10,640 nt of DNA from a virus (Duplodnaviria > Heunggongvirae > Uroviricota > Caudoviricetes), in IMG/VR virus record IMGVR_UViG_2541047125_000015; one strand, 5' to 3'. Shown here piece by piece: positions 2,022 through 9,560 of the stretch (position 1 is its first letter; each line of letters opens with the position of its first letter). Under the pieces are notes generated by a model. The model was not told the DNA's origin. It ran no database searches and saw nothing but the letters and a program-made list of their open reading frames with translations. The position numbers and the translations under genes are program-made.

Positions 2022-2579
2022 ATGATGAGTATGGAAATCCGGTCATCGGAAATCACCACCAGCGGCAGCAACACGCTTACGGGCTACGTTGTTCGCTGGG
2101 ATAACCTTTCAGAACTGCTATGGGGCGAATTTTACGAAAAATTCCAGCGGGGGGCGTTTACTGAATGGCTTGCGGTGGGTAATGACGTTCGCGGCCTGTA
2201 TGAGCATGACCACAGCATGTTACTGGGGCGCACCCGTTCCGGTACGCTGAGACTGGAAGAGGATGACACAGGGTTACGTTTTGAACTGATCCCACCGGAT
2301 ACCAGCACAGGGCGGGACGTTATCGAACTGGTTAAACGTGGTGACATCTCGGGCATGAGCTTTGGCTTTCGTTCCCGTAAGGATGTATGGGATACGACAG
2401 TCGATCCATGTGTGCGTACTGTACTGATAGCGGAACTGTACGAAATTACCGTGACATCCGTACCGGCTTACCCTGATTCCGGCGTGGAGCTGGCCCGCCG
2501 TTCCCTGTATGAGCAGCACCCTGAAAAAATGCCTCGTGCGGATAATCGCCGCTGGTGGGCGGATTTAGCGGGGGTGTGA
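2022..2579 (+). CDS. Prohead (maturation) protease, HK97 family
   Basis: 185 aa; GYVVRWDNLSE...RGLYEHDHSMLLGRTRSGTLRLEEDDTGLRFELIPPDTSTGRDVIELVKRGDISGMSFGF is the conserved core of HK97-type prohead proteases. SD-like aggtga 8 nt upstream. Confidence 0.9.
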   Translation: MMSMEIRSSEITTSGSNTLTGYVVRWDNLSELLWGEFYEKFQRGAFTEWLAVGNDVRGLYEHDHSMLLGRTRSGTLRLEEDDTGLRFELIPPDTSTGRDVIELVKRGDISGMSFGFRSRKDVWDTTVDPCVRTVLIAELYEITVTSVPAYPDSGVELARRSLYEQHPEKMPRADNRRWWADLAGV

Positions 2580-5026: not shown

Positions 5027-5037
5027 TGAGGCTGTAT

Positions 5038-5082
5038 GACGGGGTGGGGGGCGTTTTCAGGACAAACCCGCCCCCGCCGGGC
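5038..5082. promoter_or_regulatory. Candidate cos / terminase recognition region (G-run and C-run dyad)
   Basis: gacggggtggggggcg ... cccgcccccgccgggc; gggggcg (5047..5053) is complementary to cgccccc (5069..5075). It lies in the 288-bp gap between HNH and terS, where HK97-like phages place cos. An AT-rich stretch follows. Confidence 0.3.
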
Positions 5083-5148
5083 ACCGAACGCCTCCTCAAA
5101 TTTTTATGCACGGGAATTTTTTGAAAAATAATCTGACGAAAAATAAAC

Positions 5149-5505
5149 ATGGCAAGACCACCGAAAGCCCCCGCCTACCTTGATGACATCGCCGTAAAGC
5201 AGTGGCGGGAAAAATCGCGCCAGCTTGCGGAACGGGGAGACCTCACCCCCGCCGACTGGAGTAATCTCGAACTGTATTGCGTCAACTACTCGATATACAG
5301 GAAAGCCGTCGCAGACCTTGCGGCACGCGGGTTCAGCATTGTTAACAGTCAGGGCGGAGAGAGCAGAAACCCCGCATTAAGCGCGAAATCCGACGCTGAA
5401 AGAGTGATGATAAAAATGGCCTCCTTGCTTGGTTTTGACCCGATAAGCCGCCGTAAAAATCCACCGGAAACAGAAGAAGAGGACGAGCTTGACCACCTGG
5501 AATAA
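5149..5505 (+). CDS. terS: Terminase small subunit, P27 family
   Basis: 118 aa; LTPADWSNLELYCVNYSIYRKAVADLAARGF...NPALSAKSDAERVMIKMASLLGF fits the P27-type small terminase pattern, and it sits directly upstream of terL. Confidence 0.85.
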   Translation: MARPPKAPAYLDDIAVKQWREKSRQLAERGDLTPADWSNLELYCVNYSIYRKAVADLAARGFSIVNSQGGESRNPALSAKSDAERVMIKMASLLGFDPISRRKNPPETEEEDELDHLE

Positions 5506-7150
5506 GTACGCAGAAGACGTAAAAACGGGCAAAATTCCGGCCTGTAAACGGTTAAAACAGGCCGTTAAACGGTACTTTTCGGACCTTAAAAGTCCCCTTT
5601 ACACGTTCGATAGTGAGGTTGTGGAGCGGTTTATTGCCTTTTCAAGGGTGTGCCCGCACGTAAAAGGGCCGTTGCGTGGCAGACCCATTGAGCTGGAGCC
5701 GTGGCAGCAGTTCGCCTTTGCGTGCATCCTGGGTTTTAAGGTTAAGGCCACCGGACGGCGCAAATACTCGAGCGCTTTTATCGAAGTACCGCGAAAAAAT
5801 GCGAAATCCACGACCGCCGCGATTCTGGCTGACTGGTTTCTGATTATGGAGAACGGGCAGCAGGATATTTACACCGCAGCGGTGAGCCGTGACCAGGCAC
5901 GGATCGTGTTTGATGATGCGCGTCAGATGTGCCTTTTATCCCGACCGTTACGCAGGCGGGTGAATATTCAGGCCCACAAGGTGATACACCCGAAAACCAA
6001 CAGCCTGTTAAAGCCGCTGGCAGCAAAAGCGGCAACCATCGAGGGGACAAACCCGAGTCTTGCCATTGTGGACGAATATCACCTGCACCCCGATAACGGC
6101 GTTTATTCCGCGCTTGAGCTGGGGATGGGTGCACGTCCCGAAGGGCTGTTATTTGCCATTACCACATCGGGAAGTAACGTCGTTTCAGCCTGTAAGCAGC
6201 ACTATGATTATTGCTGCCAGATCCTGGACGGCGAAGAGGTCAACGAATCGCTTTTTGTGCTGATTTACGAGCTGGACGATGAAAACGAGGTTGACGATCC
6301 GGCGATGTGGATAAAGGCGAATCCCAATATCGATGTTTCCGTTGATCGTGAAAAACTGGCCTCAACCATCCAGAAAGCGCGGGGTATTCCGTCGCAGTGG
6401 GTGGAGATGATGACAAAGCGGTTTAACATCTGGTGCCAGGGGGCCACCCCGTGGATGGGTAACGGGGCGTGGGCTGAGTGTGCCGGAACGTTCACGGAGG
6501 AGGATTTACACGGCCAGGAATGTTACGCGGGGCTTGATTTGTCATCCACAAGCGACATTTCCAGCGTGTGCTATGCCTTTCCGGTCGGCAAAAAAATTAT
6601 GCTGCTTTCCCGTCACTATCTGCCGGAATTTCAGCTACAGAACCCCGCCAACAAGAACCGGGCCATTTATCGCCAGTGGGCTAAATCGGGCTGGTTGCGG
6701 ATAACGCCGGGCGACTGCATTGATTACGACCGGATCCGCGATGACATCATGGAGGACGCGGAAAAATTTGATATCAGGCTGGTGGGCTTTGATACGTGGA
6801 ACGCCACGCATCTCAGGACGCAATTACAGGGGGCAGGGTTTGAGGTTGAGCCGTTCCCGCAAACCTATCTGAGATTCAGTCCGGCGGCGAAATCGTTCGA
6901 AGTTTTTGTTAACCGCAGGGTGATAGTCCATCGTGATGATCCGGTGTTGTCGTGGTCGATGAGTAACGTCGTGATGCAGAGTGACGCGAACGCCAATATC
7001 AAGCCAAACAAGAAAAAATCACCGAACAAGATAGACCCGAGCGTGGCGGCACTGATGGCGTTTGGCACATTCCAGGCAGAGCATGAAGATTTTGCTTTTG
7101 ATATAAGCGACAGCCACCGCGAAAAACTGGAAGAATTTAACGGGGTGTGA
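5489..7150 (+). CDS. terL: Terminase large subunit
   Basis: 553 aa; an ATPase-like N-terminal region (PRKNAKSTTAA) and a nuclease-like C-terminal region. Starts at TTG5489, the only start codon after the in-frame stop at 5444..5446, with SD gagga 5 nt upstream. Overlaps terS by 17 nt. Confidence 0.9.
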   Translation: MTTWNKYAEDVKTGKIPACKRLKQAVKRYFSDLKSPLYTFDSEVVERFIAFSRVCPHVKGPLRGRPIELEPWQQFAFACILGFKVKATGRRKYSSAFIEVPRKNAKSTTAAILADWFLIMENGQQDIYTAAVSRDQARIVFDDARQMCLLSRPLRRRVNIQAHKVIHPKTNSLLKPLAAKAATIEGTNPSLAIVDEYHLHPDNGVYSALELGMGARPEGLLFAITTSGSNVVSACKQHYDYCCQILDGEEVNESLFVLIYELDDENEVDDPAMWIKANPNIDVSVDREKLASTIQKARGIPSQWVEMMTKRFNIWCQGATPWMGNGAWAECAGTFTEEDLHGQECYAGLDLSSTSDISSVCYAFPVGKKIMLLSRHYLPEFQLQNPANKNRAIYRQWAKSGWLRITPGDCIDYDRIRDDIMEDAEKFDIRLVGFDTWNATHLRTQLQGAGFEVEPFPQTYLRFSPAAKSFEVFVNRRVIVHRDDPVLSWSMSNVVMQSDANANIKPNKKKSPNKIDPSVAALMAFGTFQAEHEDFAFDISDSHREKLEEFNGV

Positions 7151-7164
7151 ATGAGGTTCCAGGC

Positions 7165-7446
7165 ATGACAGAGGCCGAAATACTGGGATTAATCCGCCGC
7201 GTTGCCGGAATCAGCCAGCAGGCTGACGAACAGGCCGCGCAGCCGGACAGCGTGACCGCCGAAAATTATGCGCGTGTGGTTGCTGAGGTGATGCGCCGTG
7301 ATGGTATCCAGCTTAACGATGTAGATATGCGCAACATACGGATCCGCGTTCTTGAAATGCTGGCCTACCGTCGCCGCGTTGAGATGTATCGGGAGAAAGA
7401 GAAAATTACTTACCACTGGAAGAAGCCGGAACGATTGCGGCGGTAA
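7165..7446 (+). CDS. Small hypothetical protein downstream of terL
   Basis: 93 aa from ATG7165 (SD gagg 8 nt upstream; track start GTG7147 overlaps the terL stop). Protein-like composition (MTEAEILGLIRRVAGISQQADEQ...RRRVEMYREKEK); no family recognised. Confidence 0.5.
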   Translation: MTEAEILGLIRRVAGISQQADEQAAQPDSVTAENYARVVAEVMRRDGIQLNDVDMRNIRIRVLEMLAYRRRVEMYREKEKITYHWKKPERLRR

Positions 7447-7461
7447 CTTGCTGATATTCCC

Positions 7462-7505
7462 GATAACGCAAAATTGCGCTGGCTGACTTGTTGCATTGCA
7501 AAAAG
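7462..7505. repeat. Direct repeat A, copy 1 (about 43 bp)
   Basis: gataacgcaaaattgcgctggctgacttgttgcattgcaaaaag. Shares GATAACGC..ATTGCGCTGGCTG...TGCA with copy 2 and contains the palindrome ttgcaTtgcaa. Confidence 0.55.
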
Positions 7506-7600
7506 TTAAGCAGGAAGGCACGGCCTGTAAGATGGGATGCAGTAAGTAGTTCAAGGCTACCTTGTGCTGGCACGCACAGTTAAGCCGTCGGTGCTGGATA

Positions 7601-7615
7601 TCCCCCACTGGGGGA
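7601..7615. promoter_or_regulatory. Perfect 15-bp palindrome TCCCCCA-c-TGGGGGA
   Basis: Read directly from the sequence; lies between the two A repeats. Confidence 0.5.
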
Positions 7616-7647
7616 AAAGCTGGCTACATCCCTCACATCTGAGGACT

Positions 7648-7690
7648 GATAACGCGACATTGCGCTGGCTGGCAAAGTGCAAAATTGCAC
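7648..7690. repeat. Direct repeat A, copy 2 (about 43 bp)
   Basis: gataacgcgacattgcgctggctggcaaagtgcaaaattgcac; roughly 70% identical to copy 1 by eye; ends in the palindrome gtgcaAAATtgcac. Confidence 0.55.
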
Positions 7691-7697
7691 GATGGCC

Positions 7698-7858
7698 TAA
7701 CCCATTGATTATTTCGAAAACCTGCAATGCAGGAAATCGGGGAAGTAAGCCTAAGCTATTGATTGTTTCGAAAACCCTCATTGGGGGATGTCGGGAAAGT
7801 AAGACTAACCCATTGATTCTTCCACAATCCTCAATTTGAGGAGGCAGGGAACATCCCC
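7698..7858. repeat. Tandem array of three ~53-55-bp direct repeat units (B1-B3), each with a TTTCGAAA-type palindrome and a short hairpin
   Basis: Units at 7698..7750, 7751..7805 and 7806..7858 share TAAcCcATTGATT - TTTCGAAAACC - 13-nt hairpin - G-rich tail. Hairpins: cctgcAATgcagg, ccctcATTggggg, cctcaATTtgagg. Confidence 0.65.
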
Positions 7859-7894
7859 TAAATCCGGTGATGTATTCGGCCCCTTTAACGGGTA

Positions 7895-7930
7895 TTGCGA
7901 TTTTCGCAACCCCCTACGAAATTTTCGTAG
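7895..7930. promoter_or_regulatory. Two adjacent dyads built on CGAAA/TTTCG half-sites
   Basis: ttgcg-atttt-cgcaa (7895..7909) and the perfect inverted repeat CTACGAAA-t-TTTCGTAG (7914..7930); same half-site as the TTTCGAAA cores of the B units. Confidence 0.45.
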
Positions 7931-7955
7931 TTTAATTACTCGTCAGATTAATCGC

Positions 7956-8007
7956 TAACCCACTGATATTTTCGGAAACCTCAATTTGAGGAGGCCGGAA
8001 CGTCTAC
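7956..8007. repeat. Fourth B-type repeat unit (B4), about 100 bp downstream of the tandem array
   Basis: taacccactgatattttcggaaacctcaatttgaggaggccggaacgtctac; same architecture, and its hairpin cctcaATTtgagg is identical to that of B3. Confidence 0.6.
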
Positions 8008-8240
8008 ATAGCTGCATCGCCGTAATGATGATTCAGCCCACCAGCCAAATCAGCACAGCAACGACAGAATAGCCCGACACAGAAAAACCACGAATATGGG
8101 GTTTTTGTTATGGCATGGTCATGATGACCGCCCCTGCTCTGAATGGTGGAAATCACCACGCAGATCATCAACCAGCTTCATGACGGATAGCCGGAAAATG
8201 ATAACGGTTAAGCAAAACCATCAGCAAATTTCCCTTTTGT

Positions 8241-8304
8241 TTGTTATTGTTCGTCGTTGTTCGTAGAGCTTCAACGAAATGTGTGGTCAGTTGTGTGGTC
8301 AGTT
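8241..8304. promoter_or_regulatory. Phased TGTTCGT repeats plus a perfect 12-bp tandem duplication just upstream of int
   Basis: TGTTCGT at 8248 and 8258 (10-bp phasing, preceded by ttgtttgttat); gtgtggtcagtt repeated exactly twice at 8281..8292 and 8293..8304, 36 bp before the int start. Confidence 0.5.
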
Positions 8305-8339
8305 TTTTGGGGCTGGAGGACTGAAAAGAGGATCTGATA

Positions 8340-9560
8340 GTGGGAAAAGCACTAAACAAACTGAGCGATTCGACATTAAAAAAATTGGCGGCTGTCCAGG
8401 CAGAAAAAGAGCGTTTTTACTCCGACGGGGGCGGGCTGGAGATTAAACACTCAAAAGGCGGAAAATTAACCTGGTATTTCCGGTACCGAACGGGAGGCCG
8501 TGAGGTTGCCGCAGAGCGGTTAAAGCTGGGGGCTTACCCTGAATTGTCGCTGAAAGCTGCAAGGGAAAAACGCGCACAGTGCCGGGCATGGCTGGCTGAG
8601 GGTAAAAACCCCCGTTATGAGTTGTGCGCCACAGTACAGGAAGCGCTAAAACCCGTTACGGTGAAGGAGGCGATTAACTACTGGCTGGAGGAATATGCGA
8701 AGGATAACCGCAAAGACTACATAAAGCTGGTGCAACGTATGGATAAGCACATCATTTGCCATATAGGGGCAATTCCTCTTGATAAATGCGACACAAGGCA
8801 GTGGATCGCATGTTTTGACCGTGTACGAAAAAAAGCACCAGTAGCAGCGGGGCACGTCATGCAAACCTGCAAACAGGCGCTAAAGTTCTGCCGCAGGAGA
8901 CGCTACGCGTTCAGTAATGCCCTGGACGATTTGATCGTCAGCGATGTGGGTAAGAGAGCAGAAATTCGCGAGAGGGTGCACAGTAACAGCGAATTAAAGG
9001 AAATTTTACGCGCTATTGATGGTGATGTGTTCGCGCCTTACTACAGCGCGTTAATGCGCTTGCTGATTGTGTTCGGGTGCAGAACTGCAGAGGTCAGACT
9101 TTCAGAGATCAAAGAATGGGATCTGAAAGAAATGTTGTGGACAGTGCCAAAAGAGCACAGCAAAACGAAGGTAACGATATTCAGGCCAATCCCCGATGGC
9201 ATTTTGCCGTTCATTCAGAAGCTGGTGGATCAGAACCGGCATACAGGGTTATTGCTCGGAGAACTGAAAAAAGATACCACGGTAGCGCAATATGGGCGAA
9301 ATGCGCATAAGCGGCTTAACCAGGAACATTGGTCACTGCATGACTTTCGCCACACGTTTACAACGATGCTGAACGATTTAGGTGTCGATCCGCATATCGT
9401 GGAGCACATCACAGCGCATCAGATGCCCGGTCAGCAAAAAACCTATAACCATTCACGCTATTTACAGGCGAAGCGGGACGCTCTGAATCTGTGGGTTGAG
9501 CGCCTCGATGTGCTGGCTGGAAATCATGAAAATATTGTTATGCTGAAGGTGGCCAAATGA
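8340..9560 (+). CDS. int: Tyrosine site-specific integrase, P4 type
   Basis: 406 aa from GTG8340 with SD aagagga upstream. N-terminal arm-binding-type region (LEIKHSKGGKLTWYFRYRTGGREV...LGAYPELSLKAAREKR) and C-terminal catalytic region with LHDFRHTF (H-x-x-R) and a downstream Tyr (KTYNHSRYL). Confidence 0.9.
   Translation: MGKALNKLSDSTLKKLAAVQAEKERFYSDGGGLEIKHSKGGKLTWYFRYRTGGREVAAERLKLGAYPELSLKAAREKRAQCRAWLAEGKNPRYELCATVQEALKPVTVKEAINYWLEEYAKDNRKDYIKLVQRMDKHIICHIGAIPLDKCDTRQWIACFDRVRKKAPVAAGHVMQTCKQALKFCRRRRYAFSNALDDLIVSDVGKRAEIRERVHSNSELKEILRAIDGDVFAPYYSALMRLLIVFGCRTAEVRLSEIKEWDLKEMLWTVPKEHSKTKVTIFRPIPDGILPFIQKLVDQNRHTGLLLGELKKDTTVAQYGRNAHKRLNQEHWSLHDFRHTFTTMLNDLGVDPHIVEHITAHQMPGQQKTYNHSRYLQAKRDALNLWVERLDVLAGNHENIVMLKVAK

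Follow-up and report, generated by a model that had tools for sequence, protein, structure and literature searches.

A non-coding array of integration host factor-consensus and hairpin units in a capsid-forming phage-inducible chromosomal island of Escherichia coli O157, with antisense counterparts in helper-phage regulator genes

The 10,640-nucleotide (nt) stretch of DNA analysed here (IMG/VR virus record IMGVR_UViG_2541047125_000015, Caudoviricetes; the whole stretch is hereafter the window) is 100% identical throughout to a chromosomal island of Escherichia coli O157 strains, and is a capsid-forming phage-inducible chromosomal island (cf-PICI). Between the last gene of its packaging module and its attachment region lies a non-coding right end of about 0.9 kb (7447-8339), in which an earlier note had drawn attention to a pair of direct repeats and a palindrome. 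Both repeats belong to a non-coding array of units that combine a consensus for integration host factor (IHF) with a hairpin, and that have antisense counterparts in regulator genes of helper phages, a description in which we place high confidence.

The gene order in O157 chromosomes runs from int through the DUF927 primase, capsid and terminase genes to an open reading frame (ORF) of 93 amino acids (aa) and thence to thiM. The window is circularly permuted, with 7400-8306 constituting the right end of the integrated island and everything from 8307 onwards its left end. The genes of relevance are as follows.

762-1967: major capsid protein
After the capsid gene, in order: prohead protease, portal, head closure protein, connector, HNH endonuclease, P27-type small terminase
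5489-7150: large terminase
7165-7446, plus strand: 93-aa ORF (phrog_1561), last gene of the packaging module, with its stop codon inside the first array unit
8340-9560, plus strand: P4-type tyrosine integrase

The region downstream of the 93-aa ORF was aligned in 57 loci, 49 of them distinct, taken from E. coli genomes and IMG/VR contigs (L numbers designate individual sequences in the comparisons), and the array was found to be a mosaic of short modules. The commonest of these is a 48-54-nt unit with a hairpin of 5-10 bp, reading, on the plus strand, GC(G/C)(G/C)TAAC-NNN-YTGAT-WTTYYCGRAA-(hairpin)-..TCGG, of which 61 distinct examples occur in the 49 distinct loci. Position by position, the array of the window comprises the following features.

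7444-7485, plus strand: unit 1, which holds repeat copy A1; its beginning overlaps the stop codon of the 93-aa ORF, its hairpin is CGCAA-AA-TTGCG (7467-7478) and its tail GCTGGCTG
7444-7456, minus strand: relaxed IHF consensus of unit 1, TATCAGCAAGTTA
7462-7485, plus strand: direct repeat copy 1, A1 (GATAACGCAAAATTGCGCTGGCTG), the hairpin half of unit 1
7486-7618, plus strand: optional module of about 134 nt bounded by GCTGGCT, with hairpin TTGCATTGCAA at 7491-7501 and palindrome TCCCCCACTGGGGGA at 7601-7615
7619-7647, plus strand: common module GCTGGCTACATCCCTCACATCTGAGGACT, with hairpin CCTCA-CATC-TGAGG at 7631-7644; directly after the A unit in most islands
7648-7671, plus strand: A2, an A unit truncated at its 5' end, which keeps hairpin and GCTGGCTG tail and lacks the IHF-type part
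7677-7690, plus strand: palindrome GTGCAAAATTGCAC, the normal continuation of the A unit in L023 and L089
7695-7748, plus strand: 54-nt unit; strict IHF consensus at 7698-7710 (minus strand), hairpin CCTGCAATGCAGG as in the antirepressor allele ..LPALQVFEK..
7749-7802, plus strand: 54-nt unit; strict IHF consensus at 7752-7764 (minus strand), hairpin CCCTCATTGGGGG
7803-7856, plus strand: 54-nt unit; strict IHF consensus at 7806-7818 (minus strand), hairpin CCTCAATTTGAGG
7895-7909, plus strand: hairpin TTGCGATTTTCGCAA
7914-7930, plus strand: hairpin CTACGAAATTTTCGTAG followed by TTTAATT, with the look of a weak terminator
7953-8006, plus strand: fourth 54-nt unit; relaxed IHF consensus at 7956-7968 (minus strand), hairpin CCTCAATTTGAGG
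8083-8106, plus strand: terminator-like hairpin AAAAACCAC-GAATAT-GGGGTTTTT (AAAAACCACGAATATGGGGTTTTT), with A and T runs at its flanks

The last of these has a compensated counterpart in L005 (AAAAACAAC..GTTGTTTTT), and is the probable end of a plus-strand transcript through the array.

The direct repeats had been described in the earlier note as about 43 bp long. The repetition itself is genuine, since A1 and A2 (7462-7485 versus 7648-7671, 186 nt apart) are identical at 22 of 24 positions, a score never reached in 200 first-order Markov simulations of 7447-8339, for which the maximum was 19. The length was overstated: the repeat covers 24 nt only, and the remaining 20 or so nt of the claimed 43-nt copies are out of register, with 6 of 19 positions identical. 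The TGCA-type palindrome attributed to each tail is present (TTGCATTGCAA at 7491-7501; GTGCAAAATTGCAC at 7677-7690), as is the perfect 15-bp palindrome TCCCCCA-c-TGGGGGA (TCCCCCACTGGGGGA) at 7601-7615, a 7-1-7 arrangement with no mismatch. Perfect hairpins with stems of at least 6 bp and loops of at most 4 nt number 11 in 7447-8339, as against 1.3 +/- 1.35 in simulated sequence and 0-1 in coding stretches of the same length. Because the non-coding stretch is so rich in hairpins, the noted pair is a sample of a larger pattern rather than an isolated structure. The further suggestion of a small duplicated regulatory cassette holds in a loose sense, A1 and A2 being two copies of one unit type, probably regulatory or architectural.

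When read on the minus strand, the conserved half of the unit is the IHF consensus WATCAA-N4-TTR, and comparison with WATCAANNNNTTR revealed both a match to the core and the A/T-rich stretch 5' to it, in the form of GAAA(A/T)A. Throughout the first 650 nt of the 49 distinct loci, the minus strand carries 93 matches to the consensus and the plus strand 13, against an expectation of 1.2 for either strand. The 10.6-kb window has strict matches at 7698, 7752 and 7806 and nowhere else, each of them on the minus strand; with a relaxed pattern, in which G is allowed for A at one position, 7956 and the A1-unit site at 7444 are gained. Variation between PICI units is largely concentrated in the N4 of the consensus, a point in favour of a role at the level of DNA.

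A search of phage genomes with the array returned matches only in genes annotated as Roi, Ant, 'DNA-binding protein', Rha or KilA-N, apart from one unannotated stretch of Stx1a phage records. Every match to an annotated gene is antisense to that gene, and among the matches listed all but one lie on the opposite strand of the record, the exception being phi191, which was deposited the other way round. The matched segment occupies one fixed place, approximately codons 40-58, in the N-terminal domain. Window positions 7742-7794 align antisense with roi of HK629/VT2-Sakai at 47 of 53 positions (88.7%, E=1e-9), and the 7803 unit agrees at 37 of 38 with the unannotated Stx1a stretch, which corresponds to a roi-type gene; further units match phiP27 Ant, a Stx2a 'DNA-binding protein', D6 Ant and the KilA-N gene of Salmonella UPF_BP1. 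No phage match was returned for A1 itself. An A-type variant from other islands (TAACTCACTGAG..GCGCAAAATTGCGC) aligns at 33 of 39 positions with the Rha gene of phi191/P13374, the hairpin GCGCAAAATTGCGC being shared. Among 120 viral contigs, the exact 23-mer TTTCGGAAACCTCAATTTGAGGA was located in 98 Roi/Ant-like coding sequences and in 15 PICI arrays. That the matches in phage genes stem from mis-assembly of island DNA into the phage records is unlikely, because they lie in frame inside long coding sequences in more than 100 records. The hairpin types of the islands pair one-to-one with phage alleles, as listed below.

CCTGCAATGCAGG: ..PALQV.. allele
CCTCAATTTGAGG: ..PQIEV.. allele
CCTCAAATTGAGG: ..PQFEV.. 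allele
CAGCCATTGGCGG: ..PPMAV.. allele
CCCCCATTGGGGG: close to the ..PPMVV.. allele (CCACC..GGGGG)
CCACAGACTGTGG: close to the ..PQTVE.. allele
AAAGCTCAttttTGAGCTTT: KilA-N gene of a Salmonella phage
GCGCAAAATTGCGC (A type): Rha gene of phi191/P13374 (..ERNFAL..)

The phage Roi, Ant, Rha and KilA-N genes thus carry, within their coding sequence and beside an IHF consensus, a palindrome that covaries with the allele and is in several alleles perfect over 5-9 bp (L087 1501-1553; L091-L097, approximately 385-460; L099-L178, approximately 418-480). For roi, exactly one strict IHF consensus is present in the gene and the surrounding 3 kb, and it lies inside the shared element. The HK022 Roi protein is said to bind inside its own gene beside an IHF site, with IHF stabilising the binding. 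The PICI copies are often the better palindromes, with CCCCC/GGGGG against CCACC/GGGGG in phage and CAGCC/GGCTG against CAGCC/GGCGG, which argues that the structure has been selected and not just the match to phage; the same improvement lowers complementarity to the phage sequence.

Covariation was assessed in 29 units from PICIs and phages, aligned without gaps. All six stem pairs vary on both sides, in 33 cells across the 29 units, and base pairing is kept through compensatory changes: none of 500 shuffles reached the observed covariation score, and 85% of stem cells are paired compared with 30-56% when the partner is slid. Distinct hairpins number 34; their stems range from 4 to 10 bp and their loops from 2 to 8 nt. 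Two other identities for the repeats were considered and set aside, namely a CsrA sponge, suggested by the many GGA motifs, which lie in stems and not in loops, and clustered regularly interspaced short palindromic repeat (CRISPR)-like or type III toxin-antitoxin repeats, the anatomy of which does not fit.

Counts were made over 5,426 complete genomes. The front of A1 is present in 924 of them, at a median of 1 place and never more than 6 in any genome. The query 7486-7647 (162 nt), which includes the optional module, was recovered in full from 85, and A1 with the TTGCATTGCAA tail occurs in 54. Dispersal of the A unit around the chromosome in hundreds of copies, in the manner of repetitive extragenic palindromic (REP) sequences or bacterial interspersed mosaic elements (BIMEs) was not found, all 57 sampled loci lying at island right ends. 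The array is common to cf-PICIs and classical PICIs at four insertion sites, and its composition is mosaic. The unit 1 type recurs internally in L005, L029 and L030. The optional module is absent from L004-type islands, in which ...GCGCTGGCT runs straight into ACATCCC... with the junction at GCTGGCT, and its variants at about 80% identity keep their hairpins. An undivided form is found in L023, where the A unit is followed directly by GTGCAAATTTGCAC and then by a GCCTAAC unit, and in L088 and L089 the 7486-7671 module stands behind a different hairpin. The A1...A2 arrangement therefore has the appearance of two array variants joined at their shared GCTGGCT(G) tail, and the module of about 134 nt was probably joined in by recombination between variants at that tail.

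Some individual islands merit separate mention. Within the first 200 nt past the 93-aa ORF, L028, L034, L078 and L080 carry iteron-like GTGAC repeats (CCGTGACGGAGAGTGACAACCAGTGACACGCCGTGAC) in place of units, followed by a strong terminator-like hairpin GACGTGACCAACGTCATTTTTT. One island, L067, has an insertion sequence with transposase ORFs right behind the first array unit, from about 3320 onward. At 1110-1440 of L089 (E. coli RM10042), the 7486-7690 module lies between PerC-family genes and a Q antiterminator gene, away from any 93-aa ORF, from which it follows that the hairpin modules are not tied to one context.

Homologues of the 93-aa ORF were found in E. coli/Shigella islands only, as near-identical proteins throughout, and a contig scan with the protein yielded a single locus, in Shigella. 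Searches of Pfam and PDB with it gave no match, nor did a fold search with its three-helix model, predicted with moderate confidence. Considered as a candidate binder, the protein is neither favoured nor disfavoured by these results. A tRNA scan of the window detected none. Within the array, a minus-strand ORF of 74 aa at 7557-7781 (RVFETINSLGLL; reads MRVFETINSLGLLPRFPALQVFEIINGLG) is Roi-like, the units retaining the Roi-like reading frame over two 54-nt periods. It was rejected as a coding sequence and regarded as an artefact of the units, because these are stop-free equally in two phases (52 of 61 in each), because unit periods are not all multiples of three, and because RefSeq annotation is absent there.

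A lambda-type cohesive-end (cos) site within the array was also rejected, the cosN sequence GGGCGGCGACCT having no match in 7447-8339 with up to 3 mismatches. Classical PICIs with the 93-aa ORF and array have two inverted lambda-type cosQ-cosN copies flanking rpp (RefSeq label 'terminase small subunit'), both upstream of the ORF and the second 76 bp from it.

L002: cosQ-cosN at 520
L003: cosQ-cosN at 265
L004: cosQ-cosN at 276 and 1143 (minus strand)
Most of L009-L085: cosQ-cosN near 2058-2401 (plus strand) and 2925 (minus strand)

This arrangement corresponds to the cos1/cos2 layout of PICIs, in which two copies flank rpp (PMC6739421, PMC9026076). The HK97-type cos of the cf-PICI would be expected in the HNH-terS gap at 5027-5148. 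That gap, between the ORF downstream of the HNH gene and terS, contains a G/C-rich inverted repeat, GGGGTGGGGGGCG...CGCCCCCGCC.

The primary interpretation in the earlier note took A1 and A2 for arm sites of the integrase type, with the palindrome at 7601-7615 as the recombination core between them, as a real direct repeat less than 1 kb from an integrase gene might suggest. A check that the note itself had proposed, the comparison of an empty site (O157:H7 PV15-279; L300 216-312) with an occupied one (MB41-1; L098 1177-1345, L001 12838-12984), refuted this, placing the crossover core, 14 bp reading AGAAAT(A/G)CCCGTAT, inside the thiamine pyrophosphate (TPP) riboswitch of thiM, outside the window. 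The arm repeats were likewise located elsewhere, as part of the region between the array and int.

8117-8129, no strand assigned: conserved palindrome GGTCATGATGACC (GGTCATAATGACC in other islands)
8237-8306, plus strand: 70-bp arm-type block, TTGTTCG twice and TGTGTGGTCAGT twice; one copy in each arm of the integrated island

One copy of the block precedes the core centre by about 85 bp and the other follows it by about 147 bp, the core lying some 65 bp beyond the integrated copy of 8237-8306. The layout is like that of the doubled arm motifs of related PICI integrases (Tommasini et al. 2023, PMC10111431). The block is 540-840 bp from A1/A2, its end being 616 bp from A2. Arm-type sites would be expected within roughly 50-250 bp of a crossover core, and A1 and A2 lie beyond that range. 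Islands at thiM, clpS, phoQ and a prophage portal gene share the A unit, each with its own doubled motif beside the core; the occurrence of the A unit with other integrases and insertion sites, and the optional nature of the palindrome-bearing segment, also count against arm sites, the probability of which is now negligible. The first sighting was therefore correct and its primary interpretation wrong, in that the repeat pair is not an attachment site. The 70-bp block was itself considered as the attachment core and rejected, the empty-site comparison identifying it as an arm block present in both arms. The window is without the true core because its right and left ends are joined through this block; it is short of about 230 bp, the core included, and represents a collapsed or artificially circularised form rather than a faithful phage-type attachment site (attP). 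Between the array and the arm block, the palindromes GGTCATGATGACC (8117-8129) and TGGTGGAAATCACCA (8146-8159) are retained by islands that carry other integrases, and are possible protein sites, perhaps of AlpA or Xis type.

As to function, a DNA-level role is tentatively preferred, with the array serving as an IHF platform, possibly together with helper Roi/Rha proteins, a proposal drawn from sequence comparisons that we consider distinctly possible, if short of probable. Each unit would be a cis element working in the same way in phage and satellite, with IHF binding and bending its conserved half, and the adjoining palindrome would act as a second determinant, either as the site of a Roi/Rha-family protein or as a structure of single-stranded DNA. 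A replicating satellite would carry 4-8 such sites per copy, by means of which several phage alleles would be covered; an IHF-bent nucleoprotein stretch could be built beside attP, and helper Roi/Rha-type proteins could be captured or sensed. In a broader and more speculative form, which we regard as doubtful, the satellite would hold a multi-allele library of cis elements with which to sense, titrate or antisense-silence the roi/ant/rha/kilA regulators of many helpers.

A number of observations weigh against the DNA-level role. The island has no gene for a Rha/Roi-type protein, A2 is without the IHF half, and the related islands L028, L034 and L078 are without any unit. The IHF assignment rests on a consensus match, and conservation at TAA..TGA is partly a matter of ascertainment because unit collection required that pattern. 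Roi alleles have different palindromes but an almost unchanging N-terminal helix-turn-helix, which accords poorly with allele-specific operator recognition. A dimeric protein site would not usually have freely covarying stems and loops of 2-8 nt; these suggest a hairpin formed in single-stranded RNA or DNA. The few wobble pairs (8 G.T versus 4 A.C) weakly favour the plus strand, and fold z-scores of -2.31 for the plus and -1.25 for the minus strand lean slightly the same way, neither strongly enough to assign a strand.

These last observations bear most directly on the main rival, possible if rather unlikely, that the late (capsid-terminase) operon has the array as its long 3' untranslated region and that the hairpins act in a putative plus-strand transcript, whether by REP-like protection from 3' exonucleases or as a multi-allele antisense RNA against the roi/ant/rha mRNAs of helper or competitor phages. 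Such a transcript would be consistent with an array that begins inside the last late gene's stop codon without a preceding terminator, with the placing of plus-strand terminator-like hairpins only at 7914-7930 and 8083-8106, with covariation of the stems alongside variable loops, with the mild plus-strand lean, and with a plus strand antisense to phage genes in perfect stretches of up to 25 nt; Bro-network genes, moreover, host regulatory RNAs such as P4 CI and P1 c4 (PMC10111431). Set against this, the covariance models of Rfam 15 gave no match to the array at E<=1 and no relevant match in L001, L087, L097 or L098, C4 and IsrK included; PICI units differ from known phage alleles in the IHF N4, lowering complementarity, as do stem substitutions that make the hairpin better; loops of three nt are ill suited to kissing interactions; and the strand bias, at 8 versus 4, is weak.

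Two further explanations appear improbable. IHF-bound sites and hairpins might together form a roadblock or terminator array that insulates attP/int or host genes from read-through of the strongly transcribed late operon and could also block leftward transcription from the flank (for example from phoQ), the roi counterpart being an IHF-dependent intragenic attenuator. Uniform unit orientation, the many units that show TTTTCG or TTTCCG behind the hairpin when the minus strand is read, and a host gene pointing into the array at the phoQ site would all suit such an insulator. So would the harm done to phage growth by Roi and Rha, which is reported only for IHF mutants and would fit a limiting of their expression by IHF. 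However, 5-bp stems with poor U tracts are weak intrinsic terminators, and a scan for these called 0 units; T runs of 3-4 occur on the minus strand of some unit types only, several types (10-bp stems, KilA-N type) having no T tract on either side, and the tracking of phage alleles by units would be left unexplained. Alternatively, the array might be a neutral by-product, the debris of short-homology recombination or gene conversion with co-resident helper prophages, kept by tandem duplication. Its high mosaicism, its variable content between islands and its absence from some would be in keeping with this, as would the origin of the best-matching alleles in Stx/lambdoid phages of the same Shiga toxin-producing E. 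coli hosts. Against it stand the recurrence of a single 48-54-nt segment of phage genes and no other, ever in one orientation and with sharp boundaries, the hairpins kept and even improved without coding constraint, and the IHF consensus retained in 93 copies.

How Gram-negative PICIs and cf-PICIs sense or interfere with their helpers is only partly known, and the array provides a concrete hypothesis on the matter. If true, it would constitute a new, sequence-matched layer of satellite-helper interaction, and an unrecognised regulatory element within the coding sequence of a very widespread family of phage genes. The harm that Roi and Rha do to the phage is reported for IHF mutants alone, a restriction that the covarying hairpin beside the IHF site in phage genes may explain.

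No published description of the array was found in literature on cf-PICIs, PICI cos sites, Rpp, IHF, Roi and antirepressors, nor any earlier analysis of the non-coding right end of these islands. Several known systems resemble the array in part. Like the arm and IHF sites of lambda/P4-type attP, it has direct repeats and IHF consensus sequences in non-coding DNA by an integrase gene; unlike them, it lies 300-860 bp further away than the true arm repeats (8237-8306) and is not integrase-specific. It shares with lambda cosB (R sites plus IHF site I1), and with the PICI cos used by Rpp, the juxtaposition of repeats and an IHF site with packaging genes, but it is without a cosN-like sequence, and the cos of classical PICIs is upstream of the 93-aa ORF (PMC6739421, PMC9026076). 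Conceptually close are the Bro-network genes that host regulatory RNAs, described by Tommasini et al. (PMC10111431): as with P4 CI/seqA, P1 c4 and IsrK, a nucleic-acid element is superimposed on an antirepressor-type gene, from which the array differs in unit structure and in having no Rfam match to C4 or IsrK.

The closest known objects are the architecture of REP plus IHF, as in the repetitive IHF-binding palindromic elements and reiterative ihf BIMEs (RIP/RIB, BIME-1), and the intragenic Roi/IHF site of roi. With the former, the array has in common short extragenic palindromes beside an IHF consensus, repeated past the last gene of an operon; it differs in bearing no sequence relation to REP and in the confinement of its units to PICI right ends and phage Bro-network genes. 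Unlike the roi site, the island element is non-coding, tandem, present in several allelic forms, antisense to the late operon and unaccompanied by a roi-type gene. Its homology to roi is direct at the level of sequence: the segment of HK629 and VT2-Sakai roi that matches 7742-7794 of the window holds the only IHF consensus of that gene, beside a short palindrome; the described Roi/IHF site is that of HK022 roi.

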